Shown here: one piece after another, positions 54-57,676 of the stretch
Layout: every line of letters starts with the position of its first letter
How positions within the stretch are numbered: position 1 is the first letter of the stretch
Assembly (NCBI GenBank): GCA_051294905.1
Contig: CM119372.1
Span: 32,738,001 to 32,802,000, forward strand
Length of the DNA stretch: 64,000 bases
Source of the DNA: Botryllus schlosseri
Taxonomy: Eukaryota
Reading direction: 5' to 3'
Made by a program: the position numbers and the translations under genes
Notes under the pieces: generated by a model
Told to the model about the DNA's origin: nothing
Seen by the model: the letters and a program-made list of their open reading frames with translations, nothing else
The model's database searches: none

Positions 54-887
54 CAGGACAAAAACAGCAAATCGTCCCCCACTCCAAACGTTGGTCTTGG
101 GTCCCTATAGGGTAGCCTAGTTAATTTTCAAGTTGAAGATTTAGTTTCGTCAATAATATTGGTAATTGCAATATATTACTATTCATTTTTAACATTCTCT
201 CAGCCCCCGATGGTCAGATTTATCTGAAGAGCTGGGAGCACGCAATTCATAATTATAACATCTGGTATCTTGTAATAATTACTTTAGGGTATGTTGTTAA
301 TTCGTGACCTTCGGTCTGTTATATAATCAAAAGATATTGTTGTGGTCAAAACGTAGCAGACTAAAAGAAATACTTGCGTGAGACGCACACACAAATTGCC
401 ATGTCTTTAATGCTCTGTGGGTGCCAGGGTGGCATTTGCATTGGGGGCTTAGATTGGAAGGACCGGACTATTAGTCACGCCCACCCAGCTCGGCTATTGA
501 CAATGAACGCATACCCCAAGTTTCGGCCAATGTCTTTCATTAGTAGCACACTTCGTGGGTTCGCATGTTGGCCGAAACTGCATATGTATTTTGCAGGGAT
601 ATCTAGACTCTAGATATCCCTGGTATTTTGGTGTGTCGTGGCGCAGTATTGACTGGCACCTAAATGCCTGTTACTATAAATGATGCATGAGGAGACGTAG
701 GCTATGCATTTCAAAATCAAGCTATCTAGAGATATTTAAATCGCAATGCTCGTAGGCAATTTCCAAGTTCATGAAATCTCTCGAAAATAGTCTATAATTT
801 GCGTTGGTTTACGAAATACTTTTGAGTCCCCTTCGAGCTCGCTCCCCACCCTATTAGGAAATTTGGGGTGCGGCAGTTGTGGACCTG
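54..887. mobile_element. Non-autonomous TIR element, family A (CAGGGCCGTAAC-type ends), decayed copy
   Basis: Ends CAGGACAAAAACAGC / GCAGTTGTGGACCTG; flanks GCTAGAAT / GCAAGAAT (8-bp TSD, 1 mismatch); internally homologous to 7699-9161. Confidence 0.7.
594..622. mobile_element. 29-bp palindromic micro-insertion with 8-bp TSD
   Basis: CAGGGATATCTAGA-C-TCTAGATATCCCTG flanked by GTATTTTG on both sides; absent from the matching position of other family A copies. Confidence 0.8.
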
Positions 888-4995: not shown

Positions 4996-5662
4996 ATTGC
5001 AATAGGCACGGGCGATCTAGTCACCCGTCAACGGCTTTTGTGCGTCGTGACGCGGTAATGGCCGACGCCGAAATGTCTATCTCTATAAATTACGCGGTTT
5101 TTGGGTGGAGGAGGGTACCCATTTTAAGAGCAACACAGCTGTTGATATCACACCGCAAAGAAAATTTGTAAAATGTATAAATTTTCAATAAATTACTCTA
5201 TATTTTGTTTTAATTCACGCAAGAATTTGGGGCTCCCTTCGAGTTCGCCCCCCTCCAATTGGGGGTTCGAATGTGGCTATAAGCTTGAGAACTTTGTTCT
5301 CTCGTCTCCACGATTATATGTCCGACAAAATAACTATAGGGTTGAAAGGGTGATTGAGTGCCTGTTCGCATTGATCACACGATATTTAGCCCTTGCTTTT
5401 GGATTATATGATGCGACAATCAAGTGCATCAGCGATCCTTTTCGATGTGCAGCCTGCAATTTTCGAAAATAAATGCCAGATACCGACTGTAATTCGGTGC
5501 ACTGCGACAGCTGTAATTGCCATGGATCCTACAAGCGAATGCTAGTTCAAATGTATGCTACATTGATCATCGAATCTCGAAGCAACACAGCTTGCAACAC
5601 CAACCAGTAAGCTTATCATACTACATTGCGGATACTCGTCTTGACAGCACGACATCACGGCG

Positions 5663-6619
5663 ATGGACGACATAAATCAAACTTCATCTACCGTTGACGT
5701 TCGGATTAATCTAGGTACAACCCAAAAGACGTACTGGTCGGATGTATCCAGTTTTAAAATATGGCTGACGTCGGTCATAACATCCAGTCTGTTTCTGGTG
5801 ATATCTGCGTACATTCTAGTTAGATTACTGATCGACTCGATGCGAAATGGAATATATCATGACGGAAGCTGGCAGATTTTGCCGGCTGAGAGATATTGGT
5901 CTGGTGCTATGTCTGTCTGTCGCATAACGTCAGTGACCTGCGGCGCTGTGGTCTTCGTGGAAGACTTGTTCGTGCGGGTAGCAGTCGATCACTTCATGCA
6001 GTACCTGTGTCATGCTAGCAAAGTCACAAAAGTAGTCGCGATGAGTGTTGGATTCATATCTAGCTACATGGTGATGTGGGTGAGGCAGAAAATGGCGTAC
6101 GACAAGTCCACGGCTAGAAGTCTTCGCGATGAAAACACGAGAATGGTGTCCGCCTTGGTCCCGATCTTGCTCTTCGGAACAAGCATCAGTTACTGCTTAT
6201 CATACGTGTTAGTAACTACGTTCGGAATGATCGAAGCTGGTTGTGCAATTGAGAAGCTACAGGTCCCCACCCGTCAACCGTGGATCATTGCATGTGTGAT
6301 ATTCGCCATGATGCAAATACTTATCCTCTGGCTTTTCCATCAACCATTGAGGAAGAACGAACTGAGTAAAGACGACCTATTAGGAGATCTCAAGCCTATA
6401 TTGCAGCGCGGATTTTACACTACTCTCGGTTGCTCTGTATCCGACTCCATCAGTTCAGCGTTGGCAGTGACATCAAAATTCGAGGACGGAGTGAAGTTGA
6501 GTTTGGTGAATAATATCAGCGTGTTTACAAACGTGATGATGGTGACGGTCTCCTACATTACCTGGAAGGACACCATACTGTTTCGAAGGTCGGTTGAGGA
6601 AGATAATGCGGAACAATAA
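5663..6619 (+). CDS. Intronless orphan seven-transmembrane (GPCR-like) protein, 318 aa
   Basis: Long intact ORF in non-repetitive DNA; seven hydrophobic segments; N-terminal NQT sequon; Cys at top of TM3 and in the TM4-TM5 loop; AATAAA at the stop. Confidence 0.8.
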   Translation: MDDINQTSSTVDVRINLGTTQKTYWSDVSSFKIWLTSVITSSLFLVISAYILVRLLIDSMRNGIYHDGSWQILPAERYWSGAMSVCRITSVTCGAVVFVEDLFVRVAVDHFMQYLCHASKVTKVVAMSVGFISSYMVMWVRQKMAYDKSTARSLRDENTRMVSALVPILLFGTSISYCLSYVLVTTFGMIEAGCAIEKLQVPTRQPWIIACVIFAMMQILILWLFHQPLRKNELSKDDLLGDLKPILQRGFYTTLGCSVSDSISSALAVTSKFEDGVKLSLVNNISVFTNVMMVTVSYITWKDTILFRRSVEEDNAEQ

Positions 6620-7698: not shown

Positions 7699-9161
7699 CA
7701 GAGCCGCAACAGCACTTCGTCAGGCCCCCCCCAAAACGTTGGTCTCGGGCCCCCCATAGGGTGGGAAATCTAACTTATGGGGGGCTTCGCCCCCCAGACC
7801 CCCCTCCGACTATACGCTGTTTACATACGGTGTGCGCTGTTTCTTCAATGCTTGTCCGTTTAGTGAGTCTGCTTTGCTTGCCTAATCGCGCGAAGCGCGA
7901 GAAAATTTTGTAATTCACGACTGAATACGTCAATATGACGCTGTTTATACATGGAGTGTCCGTTTAGTAAGTCAGCTTTGCTTGCTTAATCACGCGAAGC
8001 GCGAGAAATTTCTATAATTCATGACTGAATCTGTCAATATGGTCGGTATTACTTATATATTGCTATCAATTTTTATCCTCTCTCTGCTCCCGTAATCTGA
8101 TTTACCGGTAGAGCTGAGTAAAGTGTACTTGAAAAGGTAGGACCCCTCAATAATAATTGAACATCTCCGGGTGTATACCCGTTGGCAGGAACGAAACAAC
8201 ACTTCGTCAGGCCCATAAAAAACTTGAGTCTTGGGCTCCCATAGGGTGATAAACCGACCCCCCCAAATCACGTTGTTCGCGTTTGTCATGTAATTACAGT
8301 TGTACAGTTCAGTTAGCCAGCGCCACGCGCGAAAACTTTTGATAATTGATGATAAAATCGGTCAATAAGATTGGGAATTGCATATATATTGCCATCAATT
8401 TCTTGTCCTCTCTACTCACGAAATCAGATTTACCGGTAGAGCTGAGTAAGATGTCTTTGAAACTGTAGAGCCCGTAAATAATAATTAAACACCTTCTGAC
8501 GGGCGGACTCATTGGTATGACTTCGTTACATGATGTTACTTCGTGACCTCCTGTCTGCTATATCAAAAAATATAGAATCGCCCAAACGTAGCCTACTAAA
8601 CTAAAAGATCACACGATTTCAAATTGGTATTTCTTCACTGGCATGTAATTTTTCGATGCGGGATGGTATCTGTCCTATGAGGTTCAGATTACCAAGACAG
8701 GAACATTCGGCGCCAGTCATTTAGGCGACTATGGACAAATAAACCTATATGTCGCCTATTTCGTAGCCTATAGCCTATATAACGAAGTTTTCGGTCATCA
8801 TAAGGGCAGTCCTTTTCTGCCAAGGTTTCTCGCTGCCGATCGTTCTGGCACACTTCTTGGAGTCGCGTGTTACATGGCCTAAAACTGTATATGTCTTGGT
8901 GCGTCGCGGCGCGGTAATGGCCAACGCCGATATGCCCATTTCTATAAATCTTGTGTATTTTTCACTGGGGTAAGAGTACCCAATAATCATCACATTTGGC
9001 AACTTGAAATCGCGCGCAGCGCGAAAAATTTGTGAAAATGTCGCATAAAGTTTCAAAAAAATGCTCTATAATTTATGCTAATTCACCAAAAAATTTGGGG
9101 CCCCCTTCGAGCTCGGGCCCCTCCCAATTGGGGGGTTTGGGGTGCGGCAGTTACGGCCCTG
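7699..9161. mobile_element. TIR element family A, full-length copy
   Basis: TIRs CAGAGCCGCAAC / GTTACGGCCCTG; direct repeat AGTACAA on both flanks; internal duplicated blocks. Confidence 0.85.
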
Positions 9162-12950: not shown

Positions 12951-15716
12951 TTACAAATTGCGCGGCTGTCGACCATGTAAAATCTCGGCAGGCGTTTTCC
13001 AGTCTATGCCCGGGTGCGGTGCACATCGGTACGTAGCGAGAAGTGTTTGGAGCGCGAAGTTGAGATCTTTTCCCCCGTCGCAATTTTTTATTAATCCAGC
13101 TTTTAAAGTCTGGACGAAACCCTCCGCTTCCCCGTTCGAGGCAGGGTGAAAAGACGGTGATACGATATGGCTGATTGCCAAATTAGAACAAAACGTATCG
13201 AATTCATTCGATGTGAAATGCGGCCCGCCATCCGTGACAATTGTTATGGGCAAGCCTTCGATAGAAAAGACTTCCCTCAAAGCGTTTACTACACACAAGG
13301 TTGCGGTAGATCCGACATTCATTACTTTAACGAAAGGATATTTCGAATGCGCATCGACGATGACAAGAAACATTTTATTTTTTATTGGACCTGCGAAATC
13401 CAAGTGAATTCGTTCAAAGCTTTCAGACGTTTTTGGCCATTCGCGATACTGACGATCAGGCGCTTTCATTACTTTACGGCAAGCGTCGCAACTCTTAACG
13501 AGATTTTCAATGTCGCAATTAATGGAAGGCCATGCGATGTAACGTCGAGCCATCTGCTTCATTTTCGCGATACCCCAATGTCCTTCGTGCAACAATGATA
13601 AGGCTCGCTCTCGAAGTGACTGCGGAATTACTACGCGCTGGAAACCATCGATATTGAGCATGACTATGTCTTCGTGCAGAGAAAGCGAATGTTTGCGAGT
13701 CGAAAACCAAGAAAAATCATCAATGTGCGTCTTTGGATTCCAATTACCATGAGTGACAGATAATTTCACTAGTTCCATGGTTTTGTCTTTCAGCGTCGCG
13801 TCGCGAATTTCATTGCGAGGTAACGGTAAGCCATCGAATGCCATATTAATAGCGTGAACGATCTCTGCGTTTTCACGCATTTCCAATTCGTCAAACTCAG
13901 GGTCTGGACCCTTTGGTAGGCGAGATAAACCGTCGGCGTTTCCGTGCTGATTAGTCGGTTTATAGCGAATGTCATATTGATAAGCCATGAGCGTTAGTGC
14001 CCATCGCTGTAAGCGTTGCGCTGTAATCACAGGAATTTTCTTGTCCGGCGAGAAAATAGCTAAAAGCGGTTTGTGGTCCGTCACGAGCGTAAATTTTCTA
14101 CCATACAAAAATTGACGAAATTTAGTGACTCCGTAAATGATCGACAGAGCTTCCTTCTCTATTTGAGAGTAGGATTTTCGCGAATCGGAAAGCGTTTTCG
14201 ATGCGTGCGCGATAGGTCTCTCTTCGCCATTGTGCTCAATTGAGAGGACAGCGCCGATTCCGAATTGAGAAGCATCCGTTGACAAAATGAGCTGCTTGTT
14301 TACATCATAATGAGCTAACTGCGTAGCGTCGATTACGCCGTTTTTGAGAATGCGAAAAGCTGCATCACAGTCCGTATTCCAAATAAATTCCGCGTCTATT
14401 TGAAGAAGACGGTACAAGGCAGCGGCTTTATTCGTGAAATTAGGAATAAACGCGCGATAATAATTGACTTTGCCCAGGAATGCCTGTAGCTGGCGAACAT
14501 CCCGAGGTTTAGGCAACTGTTTGATTGCTTCAACGGATTTGTTAGACGGGTGTTTGCCATCCTTGTCAATTATGTGACCAAGATACTCGATACTACTTTT
14601 GAAAAATTCGCATTTCGCGAAGTTGACGGTGAAACCGTATTCGGTGAGGCGCTCAAAGAGCAGCGATAAGTTGCGAAAATGATCGCGTTCATCAATGCCA
14701 GTAACGATTATGTCATCGATAAAACTAGCAACACCGGGCAAGCCGGCGATCATGGCATCAATACAGCGTTGAAAATTTGCGGGACTAGATGCGACTCCGA
14801 AACACACGCGTCGATAACGGAAAAGACCGAATTGCGTGTTGATGACACACAAATTCTTCGCATCATCATCTAATTCTAGCTGAAAATAAGCATCGGCAAG
14901 ATCAATTTTCGTGAAAATACAACCACCCTGTAACTTGTGAAGAATTTCATCCAAGGAGGGCAGGGGATGTTGATCTATCTGAATCTGTGGATTCAATGCT
15001 TTAAAGCCGCCACAAATGCGTACTGATCCATTAAACTTGGTGACGGCAACAATTGGTGCTGCCCAATCACTGTAATTGATTGGTTCGAGAATACCATGAT
15101 TGACTAATCTATCCAATTCGGTTTGAACAGCGATTTGCCTTGCAAACGGCAAAGGGCGTGGCTTGTTAAATACGGGCTTGGCATTGGGTTTCAAGTGAAT
15201 TGTCACCTTTGTCTTGGTGCATCGTCCTAATACATTAGAGAAAACGGAGGGAAATTTGGACTGAAAAGATACCAATTTGTCGTTCGAATCAGAAATGTCG
15301 ATAGTATTACATGATTGCGATTTGACCATCTGCGAGGAAATTGCATCCAAAACAGACGTTCCCTTAGCGGTCATGGAGAAAGCATCGCTCCAATCGAGAC
15401 CAAAACTGTTTTGCCCACGGTGTTCGTCGAGAACTACCAATTTTAAGCCAACTCGAACTTCGGAACCCACCTGCACTGTTACAGTGCAAATACCTTTCAC
15501 TTTCAGTGGCTTGTCGCCATACGCTACGAAAGAGCAATGGTATGCTGAGAGTTTCGGAGAGCCCAAAGTTTTGTACCCAGTCAATCCCACCATGGCGGAG
15601 GGTGCACCAGTGTCCCACTGTGTCGGCAACGGAATGCCGTTGATGCTGGAGTTGATCCAGAGCTGGTTTATTACGCGTCGATATAGTTGATCGATGTCGA
15701 AGGAGAGGAGTGGCAC
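12951..15716 (-). CDS. pol: Gypsy Pol polyprotein (protease, RT, RNase H, integrase), disabled
   Basis: WDTGA protease; KIDLADAY and FIDD RT; TDAS/EKEAL/TDHKPL RNase H; HHCC and HLDF/VTD/AE integrase motifs; bounded by in-frame TAA stops, with the reading frame continuing on both sides. Confidence 0.93.
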   Translation of the reverse strand: MPLLSFDIDQLYRRVINQLWINSSINGIPLPTQWDTGAPSAMVGLTGYKTLGSPKLSAYHCSFVAYGDKPLKVKGICTVTVQVGSEVRVGLKLVVLDEHRGQNSFGLDWSDAFSMTAKGTSVLDAISSQMVKSQSCNTIDISDSNDKLVSFQSKFPSVFSNVLGRCTKTKVTIHLKPNAKPVFNKPRPLPFARQIAVQTELDRLVNHGILEPINYSDWAAPIVAVTKFNGSVRICGGFKALNPQIQIDQHPLPSLDEILHKLQGGCIFTKIDLADAYFQLELDDDAKNLCVINTQFGLFRYRRVCFGVASSPANFQRCIDAMIAGLPGVASFIDDIIVTGIDERDHFRNLSLLFERLTEYGFTVNFAKCEFFKSSIEYLGHIIDKDGKHPSNKSVEAIKQLPKPRDVRQLQAFLGKVNYYRAFIPNFTNKAAALYRLLQIDAEFIWNTDCDAAFRILKNGVIDATQLAHYDVNKQLILSTDASQFGIGAVLSIEHNGEERPIAHASKTLSDSRKSYSQIEKEALSIIYGVTKFRQFLYGRKFTLVTDHKPLLAIFSPDKKIPVITAQRLQRWALTLMAYQYDIRYKPTNQHGNADGLSRLPKGPDPEFDELEMRENAEIVHAINMAFDGLPLPRNEIRDATLKDKTMELVKLSVTHGNWNPKTHIDDFSWFSTRKHSLSLHEDIVMLNIDGFQRVVIPQSLRERALSLLHEGHWGIAKMKQMARRYIAWPSINCDIENLVKSCDACRKVMKAPDRQYREWPKTSESFERIHLDFAGPIKNKMFLVIVDAHSKYPFVKVMNVGSTATLCVVNALREVFSIEGLPITIVTDGGPHFTSNEFDTFCSNLAISHIVSPSFHPASNGEAEGFVQTLKAGLIKNCDGGKDLNFALQTLLATYRCAPHPGIDWKTPAEILHGRQPRNL

Positions 15717-16279
15717 TTAGCAGAAATTGACGGATGTGACCTGTTGCGTGATACTAGGTTTGGTTGACATGCACACAGGTTTGATATGACCTTTACGACC
15801 AGTAAGTGTTACGACACAGTCAAAACCAATGTGATTTTTACAACAACACAACTGCTCCCTTCAACACGCAAAGACGCTCTCCCTTCACTTCAACAAAGTA
15901 ATGTAGTGTACGAATATAAATGCCACTGTGATTGTGGCTACGTGGGAAGAACGTCAAAACGTCTGCAGGAACGCATAAACCAACATGTCCCGAGATTCAT
16001 CAGAACACGTGCTTCACGCTCAGTGAAAAGCTCACCCTTACCTCATCCGCTTAAGATTGATGCTGATCGATCAAAGGCCATCAATTCTGCCATCGGCAAA
16101 CATTTGTTAGATAATGCGATTTGTGCGAATAATTATCGAGACGACCGATTTCGAATCGTTGGGCGAGGCCGTTCACAATTCCATTTGTGTGCCTTGGAGT
16201 CGACTTTTATCAAAATACACCAACCACAACTCTGTCAACAAAAGGAGTACGTGTACCACCTAAAAATAGTACATTGAAC

Positions 16280-16315
16280 TATAGATAACTAACCTACGTA
16301 GGTTAGTTATCTATA
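16280..16315. repeat. Perfect 36-bp palindrome insertion
   Basis: TATAGATAACTAACCTAC|GTAGGTTAGTTATCTATA between two ATTGAAC repeats; absent from the second PLE copy. Confidence 0.9.
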
Positions 16316-16415
16316 TAATTGAACGCTCGCTCATTCACGAAATTTCATGCTGGTGACGTCATATTTTGTGATACGATTGTTGATATACAATGTTCTTTCC
16401 ATTTCTCTACTAGTT

Positions 16416-18957: not shown

Positions 18958-20266
18958 CAGAGGTGGTCAAAGTAGTCAAGAAAGCTTCTCAAGTAGAAGT
19001 AGAAGTAGCGACGAAAAAGATCTACTCAAGTACGAGTAGAAGTACTTCTTCCATAAGCATCCTAAAACTACTTGAAGGAGAAGTAGAATTGACTGACTTT
19101 AAATCTACTCAAGTAAGTAAGTAGTTGTGAAAACGATCGTAATTCGTTCGCATGGATTGTCAAAATATAGAATGTAAACATTCTATAGTCAAAAGCTGCA
19201 AATTAAGCTATGCGAAAGGTGCAGATCTTGATTCGTTTTGATGCATACCAGGAGGCATCCCCTTTTCGACAGCATAAGCATTCGTCCGAATCATGAAATG
19301 AGAATTATAGCATTGATATGGAAATGCGATACTAATCCTCTGTTTACTCGAATAGCCCGTTTTAGAAAATACCATGGTATGACGACCTACCCCATATTAT
19401 AAGGTCCGTAGTTTGGTCGAAGAGCGATACGGAGAAATTGTATCGGATGCGGTATACACACTTTGTGCGATTAGTAAACGTTAATAAAAATTTGATGGAT
19501 CGTGAAAATGCCATATTGTGTAGCTTTATTTCCGGAAATTGAAGGCATTTCTACACTTGCTCTTATACTTCAACATGCATGTCCTCCAGAAAAAAAGAAT
19601 GGAAACTAATTAGAACTCAAAGTATGATACTGGGAATTGAAAGAGAAATATGAATACTACTTCTAAAAGCGGAAAATGTATTTCATGTCTTTGGCCCAGA
19701 AAATTTCAAATGTGGTATGCTAGAAAAGGTCTAAAGCTAAAAAAAATCATCAAAGTCCACTTTTCCAGAATAGGACACGCCATTACGATACGATAGGTAA
19801 ACGCTTGATTGCGAAACATCAGATTCAAACGTTATGATGGGCGATATATCTGCTGCGATGAAATATTTTATATGGGCAATAATGCGGTGTGAACGGAACC
19901 ACGAGACCCGCTACCTAAATTATATTCACCGATATTTTCGTGAAATCATATTGGTCACTCCATAGCCACTGTGCGCTAAGCGCGACGAAAATTCTGGGCT
20001 TTACTCAACTTTTATGAAAATTAAATGTTGATACTCCGTGATAACAGCCCCGAAATTACTCAGGATATCTTCCTGTTTGGAGGAGCAAACTACTTCTACT
20101 TGACAAACTGAAAATAGCGAAAAGTAAGTATGTAGATGACAAAATATTACAAAGTATCAAGCAGAAGTAGAGGGGTAATTAGATCTACTTGAGTAAGTAC
20201 CCAAGCAGCGGAAAACTACTTGAGTACTTGAAAAAAGTAGAAGTACCTCGTTGCCGACCACCTCTG
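18958..20266. mobile_element. hAT MITE family B (AAGTAG arrays)
   Basis: TIRs CAGAGGTGGTC / GACCACCTCTG; perfect TSD CATCCTAG; collinear with 22682-25251. Confidence 0.9.
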
Positions 20267-22681: not shown

Positions 22682-25251
22682 CAGAGGTGGTCAAAGTAGT
22701 CAAGAAGGCTACTCAAGTAGAAGTAGAAGTAGCGACGAAAAAATCTACTCAAGTACGAGTAGAAGTACTTCTTCTTCTTCCATAAGCAACCCAAGACTAC
22801 TTCAAGTAGAAGTAGAATTGACTGACTTTAAATCTACTCAAGTAAGTAAGTAGTTGTGAAAACGATCCTAATTCGTTCACAGGGATTGTCAAAAGCTGCA
22901 AATTGAGCTACGCGAAAGGTGCCGAGCTTGATTCATATTGATACATATCAGGAGGTATCCAACTTTCGACAGCATCCGTGCGCATCATGGGATGAAAATG
23001 ATAGTATTGATATGGAAATGGTATACTAATCCTCTGTTTTCACGAACAGCACGTTTTAGAAAATATCATGGTATGGCGCCCTCCCCCATATTATATGACC
23101 CGTAGTTTAGTCGAAGAACAATACGGGGAAGTTATATAGGATACGGTGTAAACACTTTGCGCGATTAGTAGACGGTAATAAAAAATATGGTGGACCGTAA
23201 AAATGCCATATTGTGTAGCTTTATTTCCGGAAATTAAAAGCATTGCTACACTTGCTTTTAGAGTTCAACATGTATGTTATCCGGACAAAGAACTGATATT
23301 AATTAGAACTCAAAGTATATGATACTGAGAATTGAAAGTGAAATATAAATACTACTTATAAAAGCGGAACATGTATTTCATCTCTTTAGTCCAGAAAGTT
23401 TCAAAGGTGGTATGCAGCACCGTAACTGCCGCACCCCAAACCCCCCAATTGGGGGGGGGGGGGCGAGCTCGAAGGGGGCCCAAAATTATTTCGTGAATTA
23501 GCATAAATCATAGAGAATTTTTTGAAAATTTATGCATCTTTTTTTCGCGCTGCGCGCGAATTCAAGTAGCCATTTATCTTTATTATTGGGTATTGGGCCA
23601 TTACCGCGCCACGACCCACCAAGACATACAATCAAGTTTTAGGCCATATAACATGCGACTCCAAGAAGTGTGCCAGAACGATCAGCAGCGAGAAAACCTT
23701 GGCCGAAAAGGTCTATGCCCTAGGTCTATGCTGACCGAAGAATTCGTTATATATACAAAATACACATAGGTTTAATTGTCCATAGGCGCCTAAATGACTG
23801 GCGCCGAATGTTCCTGTCTTTGCAATCTGAACCTCACAAGACAAATACCATCCAGCTGGGAAAAAATTTATGTCAGTGAAGAAATACCAATTTGAAATCG
23901 TGTGCGTCTCTTAGTTTAGAAGCCTACGTTTGGGCGATTCTACATTTGTTGATATAGCAGACTGGAAGTCACGAAATAACATCATGTAACGAAGTCATAT
24001 CAACGGGTCCGCCCGCCCGAAGATGTTTAATTATTATTTACGGGCCCTCCCGTTTTCAGTACACTTCACTCAGCTCTACCGGTAAATCTAATTACGTGAG
24101 TAGAGAGGACAATAAATTGATAGCATTATATATATGCAATCGCCGATCTGATTGACCGATTTTATCATAAATTATCGAAAATTTTCGCGCTTCGCGCTGG
24201 CTCACAATACAGTACGGATGATTTCGTGACAAACGCGAACAACGTGATGGGGGGTCGTTTATTCACCCTATGGGAGCCCAAGACCCACATTTGTGGGGGC
24301 CTGACGAGGTGCTGTTTCGTTCCTACCAACGGGTATACGCCTGAAGATGTTTAAATATTATTGAGTGGTCCTACCTTTTCAAACACACCTCACTCAGCTC
24401 TACCCGCAAATCTGATTTCGTGAGCAGAGAGAAGATAAAAAATGATAACAATATATGCAATTCCCCATCATACTGACCGATTCAATCATGAATTCTAAAA
24501 ATTTTCCGCGCTTAGCGCGCTTAGGCGACAAAAGCTGATTCACTAAACCAACTCCCAATGAATATGATAAATAGCGGTAAACAGTGTATCGACGGAGGGG
24601 GGTTTGGTTCGGTCTATAACCCTATGGGGGAGCCCAAGACCAAAGTTTTTTTTGGGGGGGGCTGACGAAGTGCTGTTACGGCCCTGGTGGTATGCTAGAA
24701 CAGCTCTAAAACTAAAAAAAGGTCAGAGTCCACTTTTTCGGATTAGGACACGCCATGGACATGCTATATTACGATCTGAAAAGTAAATGCTAGATTGCGA
24801 AACATCAGTTTCAAACGTTATGATGAGCCATATATATACTGTGATGAAATATTTCATATGGGCGAAAGGCGACAATGTGGCGTGAACGGAACCACGCCAA
24901 CCCGTTTCCTAAATTATATTCATCGATACTATCGTGAAATTATAGTGGTTACTCCGTATCCACTGTGCGCGAAGCGAGACAAAAATTCTGGGCTTTACTC
25001 AACTGTTATGAAAATTAAATGTTGATACTCAGTGAAAACAGCCCCGAAAACCTCCTGCAACCTTCCTGATTGGATGATTGAACTACTTCTACTTGACAAA
25101 CTGAAAATAGCGAAAAGTAAGTAAGTAGATCACAAAATAACACGAAGTAGAAGTAGCGAAAATCAGATGTACATGAGTAAGTACCAGAAGAAGAGGAAAA
25201 CTACTTGAGTACTTCGAAAAAGTAGAAATACTTCGTTACTGACCACCTCTG
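22682..25251. mobile_element. hAT MITE family B carrying a family A insertion
   Basis: Same TIRs as 18958-20266; perfect TSD GTTGTGCA. Confidence 0.9.
23415..24686. mobile_element. TIR element family A, nested, opposite orientation to 7699-9161
   Basis: TIRs CAGCACCGTAAC / GTTACGGCCCTG; perfect TSD GTGGTATG; single-copy empty site at 19712-19719. Confidence 0.9.
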
Positions 25252-28146: not shown

Positions 28147-29608
28147 CTGAAAATTCAACATATATTTTAGAAAGATCTGGTACCATTCCAAATCGCGGTA
28201 CGTAATCCGATCAAAGGGCTTCTCCACATGTTGTACAGCAGGGGTCAGAAACTTTTTATACTCCGCGGAACGATTTCAAAATGATCCTTTTATCGCGGGT
28301 CGGTCTTTTAATATTCAAGGAAATGAAATTTGCCACTATCGAATTACTTATTCATAGCGGGTTTCTGCAGACTGAATTAACTCAGCTTTCCGTCATCATT
28401 ATCTAATCAAATATGATATCTATAACATAGTGTAGCATTCTAGTTGTGTTGAGATGGTATTGCTCAGTGAACCAGGGGCCGGGAACCTATGGCTCGCGAG
28501 CCATATATGGCTTTTTGATGATGTGATATGACTATTTGAAAAATTTTCTATTGTGCAGTGAATTCAAATCTTATTCATAGATTTGTTGTACAATTTCACA
28601 ATTGCCCAAGTCATTATCCTTTATCCTTGTGGTAGCAGAGACAAGTTCATGTGAGGTCAAGTTAGAGGCGTATCCACACTACACAGGGGTTTCAGGAGGC
28701 TAAGAACAGCCTCCTTCATTTTCAAATTTCTGAAAATTAGGACCAATATTGCCTGCTGATAATTGCTCATTTATTGGTTCAATATGATCATTTTTTTTAC
28801 CTATAATAGGTCAAATACGGTACGTTATTTAGGGGCCTACAACAGACAAATCTTATCCGTGGAGCTCGGTACAAAGTTTGTGTTGCAAAACAATATCGCT
28901 GTCGCGGCGGCGAGCAATATCACTCACGATCTCGTCGAACCCAACATTCGATGCCTTGAAATCTAGGATTGCACAGTATGCGTTGATTGGTCAGAGAATC
29001 AACGCAGATTTAAAAAGTCCACATTGTATACCTGATGATAGACCTGAAATGAACTTCTTTGGAACTTCCCAACAACAAATTCACTTTACAAACTGATATC
29101 TGATATTTCTCGCTTCCGATGAATCTTGCGCGTTTTGGAAAACGATTGGCAAATAACTCAATTTTCCACAGAAAAGGAGAAAAATAGGATCGTCGCATTA
29201 TTCGGTATAAGCACACAGCGCGCGTCTAATTACGAATGAGCGTTCATGCTGAGATATATTACGGATGGAAACAAGGATTCGAAAGTGAGGAGTATTTGAT
29301 CCTAGAAGGGAAGTGTTCGAACTTCCGAAACTTACCCCTGCCTAAGTCACGGCCAGTAACACACATGGTTTGATCAAAAAGTTTTTGTTCATTTATGTAT
29401 AATTGATCATCGCCACTGTTTAATACCCCCCTCTACACTGTAATTTAGTACACTTTTGGTTTTATTTCAATACAGGAGGTTAATAACTGTGCGGCTAGGG
29501 TGGTGTTTCAAAGGTTTTCTGATATTTGAGCATGCGACACTTGAACATGTGACGTTACAACTCAAACTCAAACCGGACCCTAAAACTAACCATATTGGTA
29601 CCCTAACC

Positions 29609-29630
29609 CAGGGCTATCTAGATATCCCTG
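29609..29630. mobile_element. 22-bp variant of the palindromic micro-insertion
   Basis: CAGGGCTATCTAGATATCCCTG; flanks CCCTAACC / CCCAATCC (6 of 8 match). Confidence 0.6.
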
Positions 29631-30467
29631 CCCAATCCTCGACCTAACTTTGACCCACGTGCATAAATGTCACCTGCTATTGTGTTGCATGCTCATATGT
29701 CCAGGGAATGTTTCAGCACCACCATTGGTATTCATTTCAGGAAATGGTGGTTTAACTGTGAAACAACCCTAGATTGCACACAGCACAGCACACACTCTCT
29801 ATTTTACAAGTTATTCGATATCTGTACTTCATATTCATGAGATTTACAGTGAAAAATGGATGATTATGCCATCAAGGTTGGCACACATGATGAATTTCAC
29901 AGTACAATTAGATGTAAACGATTTGAATGATTACATCAATGACCATGCGAGATTGTTGCCGATCGGGAATGCGTATACCAGTGGTTCTCAAACTGGGGGG
30001 CGCGAAGCTGCGGTCAACTGAAAAAAGTTTACCTCCAATTCATACTTGTTACTCTGTATATAGTCCGAATTTCATATTTGAGAATTATCTCATCAGCAGT
30101 CATAACCTTCCATGCCATGAAAACATCCGTTGGGGTTGCTAGCATTCTGTTTGCATTTTGTGATATTACAATAAGGGGGGCGTGAAAGTTTGAGAACCAC
30201 TGGCGTATACCGTAAAACCTGCTATTCTTTCAGAAATTCAATAGCGCGATTAATTCGAATTGTTATTTTATATACTTCCGGGGCCTACGATATTCGTATC
30301 GTAGGCTCCGATACTTCACTACGTAACATACTGGTAGTAGTGTATTACGAAGTGGAGCCATATTGGCCAAATAAAAACTAGTTCATAAAAATGTCGATAA
30401 ATATCCGACCCATACTGCAAGCAAGTCGCCTAATGTGTCGTTGAAAAGAGGAGATCGTTATCTAACC

Positions 30468-33093: not shown

Positions 33094-34062
33094 GGTAGGG
33101 GAGATGTGGTACCGATGGATCAAAAATCGGAAAATGATCGCTGGCCCTAAAATGTTCAGCCGAAAACAACAGATCTTTTGCTGGCTCAGCACTTTGATAC
33201 AAGCTCTACCTATCGCGCACATATACATGAATATCCGTCTTTTCAAAAAATATTTATGGGCGTTCAAAATTTGTTGCTCGAACGTGTCATCGGTCCCCAC
33301 CCGGTGGGTCCAATGACACACGACCCGGGGACCTATGACACATATACCCTAAAAAACTCAAATGTAACTACTTTTCTTGCTCAGTATTATAATCTAAGCT
33401 ACAGCAAGCCAAAGAAGAATGTTTTGTCGCACATGTCAAAAAATAGAATAAATATTAACTCAAATGTTGTCATAAAATCGCGTCTCGATTTAGGCTCGGA
33501 CCTATAAATTTGAGGGTACATACATATTGTCCGAAAATCGACAGTGTGACTTCCAAATACCTCGTTATAGCGGTAAAACATCATATGCAATTATTACATA
33601 AAGATTTTCTGTACGTAGACATGTTTCATTTGTTTCATGATTAGTATGCATGATTATTTTGCTTGATTTGGCTATTGTATCATCGGTCCCCACCCTACGA
33701 ATTTTATACATGAATCGAAAAAAAGTCCACTCAAGGAAAGTACTGGGTGGGTGATAGGTGTCATTATATAGCCTGATACAAGTCCTACACTTCACAATAA
33801 AAATGATTGCTGTTTTGTTCGTGTTGAAGGTTACAAAGAAAAATGTATATGTCGATCTAAATTTAGCTTACACCCCCTAAAACAAAAATCATCTGTGAGA
33901 GACCCCATTGCTCGCGCACGTCGAATTTTTTTGTATGTGAGGAAAGATTTTGCCAGAATACAATTGTAGACAAGTTCACGGAGTGTAATCATAGAATTAT
34001 CATAGAGAATTTTCAAAGTATTTTCGGTCCCAGTGATCCATCGGTACCACATCTCCCCTACC
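33094..34062. mobile_element. Non-autonomous DNA transposon with perfect 29-bp TIRs
   Basis: GGTAGGGGAGATGTGGTACCGATGGATCA inverted at both ends; TAAGT on both flanks. Confidence 0.9.
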
Positions 34063-36174: not shown

Positions 36175-36974
36175 CGTCTAGCGCGAACAATTCATGATTA
36201 AATCGGTCAATATGATCGGGAATTGTATAGATGTTGCTCTCAATTTTTTTATCCTCCCTACTCACGTAATCAGATTTCCCGGTAGATCTGAATGAGGTGT
36301 CTTGGAAACTGTAGGGCCCGTAAATAAACAATAAACATATTCAGGCGGAATAATAACTTTATTGTATGATATTGTTTCGTGAACTCCTGTCTGCTATGTC
36401 AAAGGATATTGAAATCGCTCAAACGTATAGCCTACTAAACTAAAAGAGGGACAGGATTTCCAATTGGTATTTCCTCACCGGCAATAAAATTTTCCTTGCT
36501 AGTTGGCATCTGTCTTGTCGGGTTCAGATTGCCAGAACAGGAACATTCGGAGCCAGCCTTTTAGGCGCCTATGGACATGGACAATAAAACATATAGGCCT
36601 ATGTATATATATCGAAGTTTTCGGTCGACATAAGGGCAGTTGTTTTCGGCCAAAGTTTTCTCGCCGCCGATCGTGCTGGCACACTTCTTGGAGTTGCATG
36701 TTACATGGCATAAAACTGTATATGTCCTTTGTGTGTCGTGCTGTGGTAATGGCCGACATACCCATCTGTACAAAACATCCCTATTTATTGTTGGTACCCG
36801 ATAACCCAGATATTCGGCAACATTCAGTCGCGCGCAGAGCGAAATTTTTTTATCAAGTTGCAAAATTTCCAAAAAACTCTATAATTTATGCTAATTTACG
36901 AAATAATCTTGGGCCTCCTTCGAGCTTGGGCTCCCCTCAATTGGGGGGTTTGGGGTGCGGCAGTTACGGTCCTG
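36175..36974. mobile_element. Family A, left-truncated copy
   Basis: Collinear with about 8325-9161; ends GCAGTTACGGTCCTG. Confidence 0.8.
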
Positions 36975-38631: not shown

Positions 38632-40606
38632 ATCTACATTTTTGATTATACAGAATTGGATATATGTCATGTTTGACTGATTCATGCATATTAGGGTTTT
38701 AGAGAGTCCATGTTATAAAAACTCATAAAATATGAAAAAGGAAGGATATGTAGCAATGCACTCTTACATGTTGATTGCATGGTAAATAATTCGAGCTGTA
38801 CCAACAATGAATCAAGTTTGCATGCCATCGTTAATTATATGTTTGCATAACTTTATTGGTTACATGATAGTCATTTAACAGTTATTGTGGCATATAATTT
38901 TTGAAGTAATTTGGTAATACTGTTGGAGTCGGTATATTGAAAATGTGTGGAGTCGGTATAATGAAAATGTCTGGAGTTGAAGTCGGTTTAAAAATTTACC
39001 GACTCCACAGCCCTGTATGTTATGTTGAAAAGCATTAGAAGAAACGATCTTCTTTGAGAGTGGTAGACACAGTGGTTCTTAAATACGATTCACAAGACAC
39101 AATGCGATGTACTAGTACTGGTACAACCTGACATGAATCAAACGCTGCGTTTACTCCAGGATGGGCATTCCACAAAAATTAGAGCCTTCACGCACCCAAT
39201 TCGTAAAATTCGGGAGCAGCTCCGCCATTCCTAACAAATGATAGATAGATAGATAGATAATTGTATTTCGTGTGTAGCAATTTACGCTTTATACACTGTC
39301 TGACTAGGATGATGTAAGCGTTATTTGGCACATTCATAATATGCGCCAGGTTTTCACGACAAATTCGTAGATTTCGGCATCTAGCAATGGTTCAGATAAA
39401 ATGTCAAATGACACTCGTGTTGCAGATCCCTTACGCCAGAATAACATGTCTACTTGCCACTTTGATTAATAATTAAATCAGTTGCAGACACACATTTATC
39501 CAATTACGTCGTGGCGGTGTTTATTATCCTTTCTATGGTTTGTCTCAATGCTGTCTGCCACACATAGTTGCAACCGCAGTGAGAGGTTCTATGGCGCGGA
39601 GGAGTGATAGGTGCTACGTGCGGGCTGTATTAGTAAATTGCCAGCAGTTGTACTTGGGTAAAATCTATGTTGTGTTATCATATATTAACAACTCAACGTA
39701 GCATAACGTGGAAGGTGTGGGGGCATTAATACACCTATGGAATCACTCCAGACTATATCGCGGCATCGGCTATTGGTAGCCTGAATGATGGAGATTTGAG
39801 ACTGACAAGTTAGTTGGCGACCAACGAGTAGATGAGTTGAAGTATAGCGAAGTGTCCTATACTTGAATGGTATATTCGCAAGTCGGTTCGCAGATCGAAT
39901 CATCTGCATTGTGCAAATTTTCTTTGAAACTCGTCATCAGACTTATCAAAATATGAAGCTTGGTGGTCGATATGGGCTACTAATCGTATATGGGCTACTT
40001 ATCGTAATCGTATACTACGCCAGTTTCCACCCATAGATTTTTCAGAGCTACAAGTATAGTTCAAATTATCCTGTTTCCATCATGGAGTAGGACGCAAATA
40101 CGTAAATTAGATGAACAGCGTTCTACGGTACCAAATATTGCTTTCACACCCATTCCAATGTGTTAAAACGAGTCAAATCCACCAATTCTTATGGAGATAT
40201 GCTGCGGATGCGGAGTAGGTTGGGTTGTGGCGTACCACCACAGAAATGCGCAGGAAATGGTACTCTCAAACGTAAATCGCTACACACGTATCTGGGAAAT
40301 ATCTATTTTTCACGGTTTCCCCGATTTAAATAGTTGTGAAAGCCGGAATCCAGTACGAGAATGTGCCGGTGCCGACGGCCTCGTTTTGCATTCTACGCTT
40401 TGATGTAAATCTGGCAAATACACGCTATTTTTTCCACTCGCTCATTTACAGCGTTTCAACTTCCGCTGGCTTAAATAGCGCTAGGATATTATATCTTATA
40501 CTTCCGATTACCCACGAAGTGAAGCCTGCAATGATCTTAACAGCACACCCACGTCTAGTTTCAGTCTGTTGTGGATCCCTGAATGAATAGTTACCCATAC
40601 TAAACA

Positions 40607-40931
40607 ATGCTTTTCGAGCTATGCACATGGTCGCAATACGAAATGCTGCGCACCGTAGAGCTCATGATTGAGTACGCCTGCGGCACTAGAGAGTTTCTTC
40701 ACTATGATGTAGTACCTTTGACTGTTACCGGGTCCGAAGGAGGGTGCATACCCAATAAACTGTGTAAATACGAAGAACGCTCCTGTTATTCGTGTGGTTT
40801 ACCTTATGTCAAAGATGATGAAAGAAAACCCATACGAGACATCACGCCTGTATATCGTTTCGTTGCTGCCAAACTAGGACTGATACCGTTCAGACAACCT
40901 ACTAGAATGAGAGAAGTGGCCGGATTTGAAG
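40607..40931 (+). CDS. Divergent Mu-class-like glutathione S-transferase, exon 1
   Basis: Aligns by eye to the GST-Mu N-domain (LMIEY, GLPYVKD, YRFVAAKLGL); donor GAAG|GTAAC, phase 1. Confidence 0.75.
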
Positions 40932-41806
40932 GTAACAAGTAATTTTCAATTGTTCAAGAGGTTATGTACTTCAAATCCTATCCTCGCTGTACAGGTGTTC
41001 AGGACCTGGTTAATAGGCGTCGCTTGTCAATTTATGTTTGTTCATTGATGATTGAATTGCAAATTAATTGCTGCATAACAATGAACTTGTACGGAAACGT
41101 TGACGACGACTTCCAAATTGAATGCGTCTTGTACGATCTCGAATGACATGACCACGTCTCAATATATCTGCTTTTAGTGTGCAAACAGTAGATTTACGGA
41201 TTTCAATAGTGCATGTCACCCCCTTTTATTCAACGCCGCAATCGACCGGTTTGTAGTTATCGTACTTGCAGGTTCTTGGTTGCAGGTTGTGAACGCCCCC
41301 CCAGTGAATGGCTGGTTTATGGCCTACCTTCATCATATTGGTTGGTGTTTGCAATGACAAAGGTAATAATTTGAATACGAGGTTATAAAACGTGGCACTC
41401 GCATTTGATAGTAGAGTGAGTAGAAGTAACAGGAACGCCCTGACTTTCTACTCGGTAGAAGTAAAAACTACCAAGTCAGCATTCTGGTCTGATCTTACCT
41501 AATAAGCTGAACTATTTTGAGTAGAAGTCGATGTAAGCCTAGTCTTGAATCGTAACCAATTGAGTGTTGTAGTCTCAAATCGTAAACAAATGAGTAAGTA
41601 GTTCAAGTGGAAACGGTGATCTTGTTCAACTGGTTAGCCGGCAACGTTGAATATCCCAATATCTCGAGCCGAATCCGTTCTATTTCAGACTGTACGGAAA
41701 GAAGTGATGCTTCCATGCACATTTCAAAGTTGATTATCGAATCAGCTAATGATCGCCAAAGAGTATGTGCCAAATTCGGTAAACCAACCTATTTTGTTAT
41801 CTTCAG

Positions 41807-42159
41807 ATATCTTTAAAAAGGCTCGAGCCGACTTCTATGCAAAAAAAGGCCAAGATGTCCTGAGTCGTAATTTTGGCCCGGTCAATGATCATTTACATTC
41901 GCATTATTATCTGGGTTCCAGCATTCCTAACTACGTCGATTTCATCCTTTTCAATTTGATGGAGCTACATGAACGTAAGCATCCAGGCTTCATCAGTAAA
42001 CTTCAATATATAAGGCGTCACTACAATAACATGAAAGATCTGCCAAAAGTGAAAGATTACCTTCCGCGGTATGGAATTGGGGAAGATGCACCAAAAAGGG
42101 GTTACGTTCTCAAAGCGTATCGCGGTCTACGCACTCCGCACGACTGTGTGAAAATGTGA
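41807..42159 (+). CDS. Divergent Mu-class-like glutathione S-transferase, exon 2
   Basis: TTATCTTCAG acceptor, phase 1; YYLGSSIPNYVDFILFNLMELH...LPKVKDYL is the GST C-domain; joined CDS 678 nt (225 aa). Confidence 0.78.
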
Positions 42160-50485: not shown

Positions 50486-52096
50486 GTAAGTAGGGGGTTT
50501 CGGTTTAGATGCTTTCAACCTTTGCCAGTTGAAGTCTAGAATATGCGTAACTAAATTGAAACAATATAGCCTATATTAGCACTTGCTCTTGCCACACAAT
50601 CAGCAATATCAGCAGCTGTACACGAAAAGAGTGTGGCAAAGGGATAAATCTTGACAAAACAACGAATGTCATACTTGGGCAATGATATTGTCACCAAATA
50701 TCACCCAGAAACTTTTCTGTGAAAATTCACGATGAAGAGGTAACTCATTGTCATACTTCGATAACTATTCCGACCATTGTAGTGTTCCAACGATGGCGTT
50801 GACGTTCAAGTTGCGAAGGTATTGACTGTTCATATCCTTCCTGGAGTTCGGGAACATCATGCATGTCACTTTATTTCGTTTGTTGCTTCTTAAGACGTGA
50901 CACGATCCAACTCAATTGTGGAAAGTTTGCGACTGCAAATTCAAATTCCTGCTGCGCCGCTGTGAGCCTATTTGCACGCATAATTGTTCGTAGTCTTCTT
51001 ACTCTACACCGGGATAATTTATTACCGCGTACTTCCCGAAGAGCCGTGACGCCAACAAATATAGTGAGGTTATGCATCAATGTTAATAACGATATGCCCG
51101 TCTGCCAAGGGGCAAATAGGCCTATGCGGTTTATCAAGTGTACTTAAATTGGCACATATCATAATAATAAATAAACAGTGAATATATTCTAATTAATGAT
51201 ATCTTCATCTGTGATCCATAAACAGCATTGATATGTAAAGCGTGATAATATTGGATGAATGACGTAGATATAAATGAGTCACAAGCAGTGTCGAAATTAT
51301 CACACACATAGGCTACATGCAGCATTGCCATTTTCCCGGTAGCACAGCCTAAGCGGCTACATTGTTAATTGAGAAATATCAAGTGAGACTTGGTTTCGAT
51401 GCTGAAGATTGCAAACTGCAATTAGCATAATGTTTTGACAAATTTTCGGCGATAGCATTGCCACTTTACGTGGGTGGTTGATGAGCATATAGCCGTGTTA
51501 GTCACTTGAGCCTACGGCAAATTCAATATTGTGGTTGGTTGGATGCTGTTTCTCAAGTGTTACAACACTGTTGTTTACACGTCATGGCACGGAGTAACAT
51601 TCGAAGTACACAAATGTACAGTCAAATTAATTGTAAATTTTTCATTGCGACGATTATACCGACGGCGCGATATTTTGCAGTTACTAATGCGGACTGGGTA
51701 AAAAGAGTCTAAAATAAGCCTACGCTTAACTACATATTCTCATAAAATAGAATTATAGTCATGTCAGAAAGTATGATATGCGCAATCACGCTATTTCGTC
51801 ATTTTATTTTAAACAAATGCAAATGCTTGATCAGCAATATTATGTGTGCTTCCACTACGCCGATCCTTGAACGAGTTGAAAGAATATGAATGAAAAGTCA
51901 TCGTCAAAACGTGGCACAATATGAGATTGTATCAAAGTTTTCTTTGTAGAACCACTCCGAATATGAATAGTTCCACGCGTACGCAGTAGCGTGCAGGGTT
52001 CTGTTGACAGCGAACGTCGATGAACTCAACCGTGCACCCGTGATCTCCCTAATCCAATTAAGATATTACAATATTGTTATTTTTCCACCGCCACAG

Positions 52097-52285
52097 ATAC
52101 CGGTCGGTTTATCCCTTGGCGTTTCATTCATATCGGCCGTTACTGTGATCGGCGGTCCCGTGGAGTCGTATCTGTTCGGCGCCGTACTCTCGTGGATGTC
52201 TGTCGGGTTTGCCATTGGACTGGCGTTTACATCGGTTTATTTCGTGCCCCTCGTCTACAGACTAAACATATCCAGCATATATGAG
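52097..52285 (+). CDS. SLC5A-like symporter, exon 3
   Basis: IPVGLSLGVSFISAVTVIGGPVESYLFG...PLVYRLNISSIYE; AG/GT boundaries in phase 0. Confidence 0.92.
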
Positions 52286-54053
52286 GTAAAGATATATAAA
52301 AATATGGTAGGAATATTAAGTCTACCACATATAGGGTTGCGAGTCTCATTCGTTATTGGGTATCTGCGGTTGACCGACATTTGAGCATGCGACAGGATGA
52401 AACACAACAGTGGGACATGCGACATTTGAGCATGTTACTTCAAACCTAAAAATAACCATACCACAGCTAAAACCCACGATTTAATCGTTATACTAACCGT
52501 ATAACACATACCGTAACCCTAATCTAACCCTAAATCTAACCGCCACCCTAGTGTGATCCCAGTTGTAACCCCCATGTTCAAGTGTCTCAAGCCGGAATAT
52601 CGTATGCTGAAGTGTAGCAAGTTATATTGAGTCGCATGGTGACGGTCATGTGTCCAGGGGCCGGTATCAGCAACACGAACCACTAATTTGAAATTGATTC
52701 ATATCACTTTAGATGTCACCTGATTCGAATCACGTGTCTCAAATCGAATCAAGCCTTTCAAATAACGAATCACACGATTCTACGAAGGAACAGCGAAATC
52801 GAGAATGTAGAACGCACGGATCACATATATATGATATAATTTGCGAGCAAGAATAACAAAGTTACGAGTTGCTACAAAGTGTACCTGTGATATGGAATCA
52901 TCAGATATGTTTTGTGACTCCATATCAACTGATTAAATTTTGTGTCGTGCAAAAGAACTGATCTATTCACATACAATAATTGAACCATTCCTTCATTTGT
53001 TTGTTTTCATTTTCACGGCGTTTCTAGACGCATAATCCAAAGCCCTCGCGCTTGTTGCTACTTCGTGAATCGTTAGCTTTTCACCAGCAAATCAACGTAT
53101 CATGTGTGCTCGATATATTAGTGATTTCGTCAATTCCCAGCACAGGCCACACTTGATACCTGTCTCGGGTCCCGCAGTAGTACAAAATTATGATCGTTAA
53201 GAGATATAGATCGGAATCAAAATTGCATTTATAGACTAATTCTTCTCTAAAACAACAACAACAAAGGCTACGACATACATGCCTTGCGGTGTGAGAAATT
53301 CCATTTAATTAATACGTAACAGCTGCTTAACATTTATTCGCTTGAGCGATTTATAATTATATACCTCAAATCCCATTGTACACAAACTTGACAGTTATCG
53401 CTGTCCAACACTTTAACGTCAACCAGTAATTTGGGAAACCGCATCGCAGATGCCTGGTTACATTATTTACATTCTTTATCGGGTATGTGTTCTTATTAGG
53501 GTGATGCATGCGAAGTTGAATCCAACATGCCCAATTGTGCAATGTTGTTAGGGCAATTCTTTCTGATAGAAAAATAAAACAATGTCAAAACTCATTAAGC
53601 TGACAATTTTTAGGCATCGCTGCTACGCATTTTCATTTCTTCACACTTCGTGGGTTTGCGACATGATATTCTAAGCAAATAACATACCACCGTGATAAAT
53701 CATGACTGATCTCAAAACACTAGTCACTGGCCCAGAATCCGTTACGAATTCAATTATACTTATTGATATTGTTGTTGTCTCGAAACGATTTTTGCTGATA
53801 ACTATTATAATTGATATTCCACTGTATATAGTTAGTGTGCGATTCATGAGCATGTGAGATATATCAAATGCGATCCGAATGACTGAGCCTAATTGGCATT
53901 GGTATATCTCTCCTGTCATACGTTTGTATCGAACGATATAATATCCATTACCTGTCCAGTGTCCACCCATGATTGGACCATCAAATTTGTAAGAATTGAA
54001 GGATTCTAAGGTCCACGCCACCTTGCGTCACAGTATGACGATATGTTTTGCAG

Positions 54054-57600: not shown

Positions 57601-57647
57601 CGTTAGTCATAATCTGGCGTTAGCCCTGCGTATGCGTTGTGATGAAT

Positions 57648-57676
57648 CAGGGATTTCTAGATTCTAGGTATCCCTG
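57648..57676. mobile_element. 29-bp palindromic micro-insertion with 8-bp TSD, second copy
   Basis: CAGGGATTTCTAGA-T-TCTAGGTATCCCTG flanked by TGATGAAT on both sides. Confidence 0.8.

Follow-up and report, generated by a model that had tools for sequence, protein, structure and literature searches.

Short palindromes between 8-bp target-site duplications are probable excision footprints of a P-superfamily element

The Drosophila P transposase cuts one strand 17 bp inside its 31-bp terminal inverted repeat (TIR) (PMC7776569), and P donor sites keep 17-nt 3′ tails between target-site duplications (TSDs) of 8 bp (PMC2895639). Cutting the donor with so long a stagger is noted in the literature as an unusual trait of this transposase (PMC7776569, PMC10983969). 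Junctions of P{wa} read TSD, tail, inverted tail and TSD, and fall into microhomology, blunt and templated-insert classes (PMC2895639), microhomologies near the 3′ ends being favoured (PMC5466332). Synthesis-dependent end joining has been described to yield complex inserts in which copies of nearby sequence overlap (PMC2943611), and the repair of Tc1 breaks by polymerase theta is marked by single-nucleotide homology together with templated inserts (PMC4490562). The palindromes described here share with Drosophila P footprints the 8-bp TSDs, the head-to-head TIR stubs and recurrent products of ~30 bp, as well as microhomology joins, blunt joins and templated inserts. They differ in having arms of 19–20 nt rather than 17, in the sequence of the TIR and in the target motif; moreover, they would be natural, inherited scars dispersed in two non-fly hosts, whereas the P footprints derive from one laboratory locus.

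The window, the whole 64,000-nucleotide stretch that was analysed, is repeat-rich eukaryotic DNA of ~40% GC. The features of the palindrome family within it are as follows, with strand given where one applies:

270 to 890 (approximate bounds), plus strand: family-A repeat hosting copy 1, an old, diverged copy
586 to 593: left TSD of copy 1, GTATTTTG
594 to 622: copy 1, a 29-bp putative scar of two TIR stubs head to head
623 to 630: right TSD of copy 1, an 8/8 match
8885 to 8900, plus strand: family-A paralogue with an empty site in place of copy 1, from the alignment of family-A copies
29601 to 29638: copy 2, a 22-bp putative scar (29609–29630) with a 6/8 TSD and one substitution
36716 to 36732, plus strand: family-A paralogue with an empty site in place of copy 1, from the same alignment
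57640 to 57684: copy 3, a 29-bp putative scar (57648–57676) with a perfect TGATGAAT TSD

Copy 1 is palindromic without a mismatch (14+1+14, the centre being a single nucleotide), lies between perfect TSDs and is predicted to fold as DNA into a hairpin of -11.2 kcal/mol (z -5.45). The original prediction described three pure palindromes with TSDs. All three are present, and the TSDs are as it gave them, perfect for copies 1 and 3 and 6/8 for copy 2, but copies 2 and 3 carry 1–2 substitutions. Copy 2 comprises two 14-nt stubs overlapped on the self-complementary TCTAGA, a 6-nt microhomology, plus its single substitution; its TSD is weak evidence because the 6/8 match lies within a low-complexity C/A/T context. 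Copy 3 has one substitution in each arm and is thus not a pure palindrome. The 14-mer matches the window six times at two mismatches or fewer, against 0.30 expected and a maximum of 3 in 100 shuffles, and no further arms were found in the window beyond the three copies. A window scan for the arrangement TSD–palindrome–TSD returned 12 loci compared with 0–1 in eight Markov shuffles, with copy 3 overlooked and several of the 12 being tandem or AT-rich noise.

Copy 1 is an insertion into its host repeat, since the palindrome is absent from all six of the other family-A copies aligned. Those at 8.9k, 23.6k, 31k and 36.7k align across the site, bearing out the empty site that had been predicted in paralogues, while those at 5k and 45k align on the right side only. 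In addition, a 37-bp skip (29+8) at 588>626 occurs in contigs of 4/4 runs containing this DNA, and these contigs may be paralogues rather than alleles. The search for an empty site of copy 3 met a repeat at 38.1 kb that matches solely from the TSD rightwards, and was hence uninformative.

Contigs aligned to positions 200–1040 came from runs X1, X8 and X9 (organism A) and X5 (marine metagenome), and in all four runs they contain many small indels at 606–609, the centre of copy 1. Seven listed indel classes, besides which 10 further indel rows exist, total 87%, 97%, 100% and 88% of central depth in the four runs, where one contig may carry more than one class and depth is a share within one run rather than a copy number. 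The biggest classes differ from copy 1 by a single base, either missing or added. Insertion of an A after 606 gives a 30-bp form that is also present at locus L026, and three bases inserted after 608 give a perfect 16+16 palindrome. Variants of 28–32 bp dominate in the four runs and 29 bp is a minority class, alignment to copy 1 being biased toward lengths near 29; the 19–20-nt arm discussed below is a figure for the metagenome host and not for this organism.

Most of the quantitative evidence derives from this metagenome host, which is different from the window's organism. Scanning metagenome contigs for two arms no more than 30 nt apart identified at least 120 loci in five assemblies, and clustering of the listed loci by their flanks yielded at least 75 independent sites; the scan pattern is blind to scars with more than 30 nt between motifs or a short second arm, to decayed copies and to longer deletion derivatives. 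Comparison of the locus flanks with the window gave three BLAST matches of at least 60 bp, and the host is considered another species because its flanks have almost nothing in common with the window. Both hosts have the same sequence over at least the first 14 bases of the end and share almost no other repeat in the stretches compared; this common end may reflect either conserved ends or horizontal transfer.

The original prediction had proposed a genome-wide tabulation of spacers and TSDs; palindrome lengths and TSDs were tabulated on the metagenome contigs. At the 75 listed sites, mean TSD identity is 0.82 for a length of 8 bp, compared with 0.24–0.35 for lengths of 4–7 and 9–12; the 8-bp repeat is perfect at 27 sites, matches at seven or more positions at 49/75 and at five or fewer at 14. 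The proposal of a transposase-made insertion with an 8-bp TSD is upheld. The palindromes at the listed sites range from 22 to 98 bp in 26 different lengths, with modes at 31 bp (23 sites) and 32 bp (11 sites). This spread, together with the 28–32-bp variants in the organism's own runs, contradicts the view that the family is a defined 29-bp unit. The uniform length and structure expected of an amplified TIR-only MITE were likewise not observed, given the 26 lengths at the listed sites and the central indels in 4/4 runs.

Two arm types, taken from the two scars L105 and L106, account for the ends in the metagenome host: the 20-nt A (CAGGGATATCTAGAAACTCC) and the 19-nt B (CAGGGATATCTAGAACTCC). 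Assignment of the 75 listed sites gave 39 A, 27 B and 9 neither, and the longer arm measures 19–20 nt at 58 of the 75. It should be emphasized that, as the arms were defined from scars, the 20-nt ceiling rests on what comes after the arm and not on arm length. Among the matches listed, with a gap of up to 30 nt, 62 full-length arm ends are followed by the opposite arm, by copies of an arm or by site-specific bases, and no shared interior beyond the arm was found at these 62 ends.

The palindrome is constant, TIR-like sequence at 75/75 listed sites. This bears directly on the parent's superfamily, for which the original prediction named hAT or P, and CAGGG ends with 8-bp TSDs are compatible with hAT also. 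The anatomy of the scars, however, favours P. Footprints of hAT and MULE elements have the same 8-bp TSD class and can include palindromic scars (PMC5499845), but that palindrome is site-specific flank DNA, whereas here constant TIR sequence stands between intact TSDs. In hAT, MULE and Transib elements the hairpin is formed on the flank (PMC5499845), from which we infer that a hAT excision would leave no TIR stub behind; hAT is therefore unlikely, and a hAT footprint, that is, a palindrome of flank DNA without TIR, was rejected on the constancy of the palindrome. Zebrafish Pdre2/THAP9, a chordate member of the P superfamily, resembles the present family in its 8-bp TSD and in ends that start with CA, although the Pdre2 TIRs are 13 bp long and of other sequence (PMC10983969). 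As at Tc1 germ-line donor sites, single-nucleotide homology and templated inserts are found here, but Tc1 leaves 2-nt overhangs and hence tiny scars (PMC4490562).

We propose that the palindromes are probably excision footprints of a P-superfamily element, cut ~19–20 nt deep in the metagenome host. A full-length transposon with P-superfamily TIRs would have inserted, creating the 8-bp TSD, and later excised. The P-type transposase would cut one strand at the tip of the element and the other well inside the TIR, such that a long stretch of the TIR would remain on each donor flank as a 3′ single strand. The two identical overhangs would then be paired by host end joining, putatively of the polymerase-theta type, using 1–6 nt of microhomology and in some cases following repeated templated synthesis, and fill-in and sealing would leave TSD, TIR stub, inverted TIR stub and TSD. 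The scars would thereafter be inert passengers, though one site sits in a repeat with 21 near-identical loci. The original prediction omitted this route, in which a P-like donor cut with a long stagger is repaired by end joining of the host. Its description of the unit as two abutting TIR stubs, probably too short to transpose, agrees with the present data. It had also left a choice between a mobile unit and a collapse product; the former, which it preferred, is unsupported as a defined 29-bp unit in view of the length spread, while a product of a longer element is close to the reading preferred here.

In both subfamilies the modal product is a full arm joined via its last base (C) to position 13 of the other arm, a 1-nt terminal microhomology that gives 32 bp at 11/39 A sites and 31 bp at 12/27 B sites among those listed, counts that tolerate up to two substitutions; the modal length shifts between 31 and 32 bp with a 1-nt indel in the arm. 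Other products use a 2-nt microhomology (30 and 31 bp), a 6-nt microhomology (22 bp) or blunt joins (19+20 and 20+20). A counterpoint to the P reading is that the strong 6-nt product is rare, found at 1/75 listed sites (L071) and again in window copy 2, while the 1-nt join is dominant. In total the listed sites comprise 31 microhomology junctions, 6 blunt junctions, 14 inserts of 1–3 nt and 24 inserts of at least 4 nt, classes that are blurred by substitutions near the junction.

These junctions also bear on the possibility that a longer element, of any superfamily with 8-bp TSDs and thus hAT included, collapsed with no long stagger in the cut. Pairing in single-stranded DNA could bring together the TIRs of a fold-back element or MITE, whose loop would be lost by deletion or by cutting and end joining; alternatively, gap repair following excision could abort within ~20 nt of each end. 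A bacterial precedent for collapse is the nearly precise excision of Tn10. Such events would also yield TSD, TIR, TIR and TSD with ends concordant in subfamily, abortive gap repair combined with microhomology joining is known to make MITEs (PMC3814204), the parent may be a MITE with 19/20-bp TIRs, and the scan pattern is blind to longer derivatives. Collapse predicts, however, that some remnants should extend past 20 nt into shared sequence, and none of the 62 full arms does so despite the 34 listed scars of 34–98 bp. In addition, each subfamily forms its modal junction through the terminal base of the arm, as would be expected of a free 3′ end. We therefore regard collapse as unlikely.

The longer inserts are consistent with templated synthesis before joining. 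Among the listed sites, 18 of the 22 inserts of at least 6 nt match the arms better than shuffles do (p<0.05). Scars L003, L005, L090 and L118 contain copies of their own flank and were thus formed in place; L005 alone of the 22 inserts is significant against the flanks of other sites, the copies in L003, L090 and L118 being recognized by eye. In L003 the modal join is prolonged into the right flank by 13 nt before returning to the right arm, a structure as expected of iterative templated end joining and one that points to priming on the opposite overhang. Folding of single 19/20-nt arms gave no stable structure, and snap-back priming is therefore unsupported. In several long scars (e.g. L002) the initial bases of the modal join prolong the arm, either at one end or at both. 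We read this as repeated priming; alternatively, the end of the parent may itself contain this hairpin.

Scars of at least 34 bp, of which 34 are listed, show what the joined object is. The long arm is read from both ends in 20 of them and from one end in 12, where the other end is unclassifiable; one reads the loop complement at one end and one is unclassifiable. The one-of-each polarity of the 31/32-bp form occurs in 0/34. With respect to subfamily, the ends of these listed scars are AA in 12, BB in 7 and AB in none, with an unassigned end in 14 more. Thus, both ends belong to one subfamily in 19/19 assignable cases among the matches listed, for which the probability under random pairing is ~7e-6. 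Polarity and concordance together indicate that the primary object is the 19/20-nt end, present twice, and that the 31/32-bp form is one way of joining it.

It could be argued that the 28–32-bp hairpin is instead a mobile, TIR-only mini-element of which the longer forms are decay products. Indeed, 23/75 listed sites hold one of two nearly identical products, and two of the three window copies are 29 bp. Made1, which is 80 bp long, is a fixed-structure amplified family, whereas the hairpin here varies site by site and is less than half that length. The two are alike in being a palindrome of two TIRs with a short spacer, and Made1 demonstrates that TIR-only MITEs exist (PMC3814204). Maintenance of the TSD is neutral in this respect, averaging 6.5 of 8 at 31/32-bp sites and 6.6 at the other listed sites. 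Against a mini-element, none of the 34 longer listed forms retains the one-of-each polarity, the 20+20 and 19+19 forms are not derivable from the unit by deletion, the own-flank inserts were formed in place, and 29 bp is the minority class in the organism's own runs. P transposase, furthermore, needs binding sites internal to the 31-bp TIR (PMC7776569), which a 30-bp scar would lack. Repeated identical lengths are themselves expected of scars, as recurrent identical products are documented for P, one 30-bp product making up 14/68 Drosophila P junctions (PMC2895639). Taken together, these observations make a mini-element very unlikely. A related suggestion, that the commonest 28–32-bp scar was re-mobilized by the transposase and spread as a new insertion with an 8-bp TSD, is in our judgement highly improbable; the transpososome would have to pair two overlapping ends, the scars formed in place would be the hairpin's birthplaces, and the 23/75 near-identical listed sites its progeny. 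To our knowledge, such a hairpin would be far shorter than any known TIR element.

The excision reading can be followed further where a scar is represented by several loci. Among the listed loci, 17 of 20 multi-locus clusters show one length throughout (18 if 58/58/57 is tolerated), and multi-locus clusters have site-specific centres and intact TSDs. The listed clusters that vary are one of 58/58/57, a 39/31 pair and a 21-locus cluster with 32–69 bp, and from these differences it follows that some scars were later altered in length or were independently repaired. These features bear on an assembly artefact in which a long hairpin had been collapsed to a short one. The outside evidence does consist of contigs throughout, but the short form is present in contigs of four runs and of five other assemblies, and the constancy of length within 17–18 of the 20 listed clusters, with their site-specific centres and intact TSDs, leaves such an artefact scarcely credible.

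The 21-locus cluster (L008, L020, L024 and 18 others) consists of near-identical loci sharing one scar, mostly of 51 bp but also of 32, 50, 54 and 69 bp, and its length variants differ by a 19-bp unit; this scar has been amplified as a passenger while changing length. Loci L061 and L081 have identical flanks and scars of 39 and 31 bp, respectively, explicable either by separate repair of a single insertion or by an 8-bp deletion that came later.

The original prediction suggested looking for a transposase-coding element with the same TIR; no parent or transposase with a matching TIR was found in the window, the listed loci or the viral and prokaryote collections. Scans of viral contigs for the TIR gave 0 and 0 matches. 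A single match in a prokaryote genome (L121) was discarded as an unpaired 19-mer in bacterial-looking DNA, ~4 such matches being expected by chance on an estimate for 596 Gb and two strands. Unpaired arms within the listed loci are confined to L072, where there is a 23-bp scar, and L020, where the copy is decayed. A Pfam scan detected no P or THAP domain in 17 + 150 frames of the window, drawn from 319 frames of at least 55 aa outside the Gypsy region and covering those from ~67 aa upwards, or in 136/314 locus frames.

The sites of insertion provide a further comparison with P. Target preference was analysed at 61 of the 75 listed sites (TSD of at least 6/8 and 30-nt flanks), giving 122 half-sites. 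The strongest preference is 3 bp outside the TSD, where T occurs in 74/122 half-sites (p=5e-12) and the information content, 0.32 bits, is the highest of 20 positions; within the TSD the strongest biases are at positions 1, 3, 6 and 8. The hAT target consensus is nTnnnnAn or nnnTAnnn. Agreement with it is weak, T being found at TSD position 2 in 47/122 and at position 4 in 51/122. The P target motif is a 14-bp palindrome with most information 3 bp outside the TSD (PMC2577343). The peak therefore lies at the same position, but the base is T here and A in P, and the last three bases of the element do not restore the target motif here, in contrast with P.

The mechanism itself is already known from Drosophila experiments, so that the gain lies in extending it and making it testable, not in describing a new system. 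If the excision reading is correct, natural scars would reveal the depth of a transposase cut in an uncultured animal (19–20 nt, moving with a 1-nt indel) and would offer, for a single defined substrate, a naturally assembled set of end-joining outcomes in the germ line. They would also be a record of past excisions that repeat annotation overlooks or mislabels as micro-MITEs. No report of natural scars as a dispersed genome-wide family was seen in the titles and abstract openings searched, and the 14-mer was found in 0 papers; subscription journals, Repbase and supplements were outside the scope of both searches.

The window holds other palindromes, whose ends begin with TA or CG:

16273 to 16324: further scar candidate, a perfect 36-bp palindrome (16280–16315) with TATAG ends and ATTGAAC on both sides
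19159 to 19194: second family, a 22-bp palindrome (19166–19187) with TATAG ends and a perfect 7-bp TSD, GTCAAAA
30272 to 30317: further scar candidate, a 32-bp palindrome (30279–30310) with CGG ends and a perfect 7-bp TSD, ATACTTC

A paralogue at ~22888–22894 lacks exactly 22+7 bp of the second-family palindrome, which proves 19166–19187 to be an insertion of 22+7 bp relative to that paralogue. Its 7-bp TSD matches those of Galileo and 1360, which are members of the P superfamily (PMC3698922), but it starts with TA and not CA. The palindromes at 16273–16324 and 30272–30317 are probably further scars. At the former the right ATTGAAC is offset by two extra bases; no empty site was found for either, and no other copy of the latter was found in the window or the listed loci. 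The 36-bp palindrome lies just past the stop of a 169-aa frame (15768–16277) without a Pfam match.

Several further elements were observed in the window. A young-looking element of 969 bp lies at 33094–34062; its 29-bp TIRs are perfect, and the frames scanned gave no Pfam match. Segments at 40604–42159, 51971–52384 and 56472–56813 hold GST-like gene exons (PF14497), exons matching a sodium:solute symporter below the cut-off (PF00474) and a frame that has no Pfam match and by eye resembles the C-terminus of a hAT transposase. A 921-aa retrotransposon pol frame at 12951–15716 (minus strand) contains reverse transcriptase, RNase H and integrase in Gypsy-like order. A single-exon, 7TM-like frame of 324 aa at 5645–6619 (plus strand) has no Pfam match, and its nearest atlas clusters are hypothetical or serpentine-receptor-like proteins, mostly from chordates.
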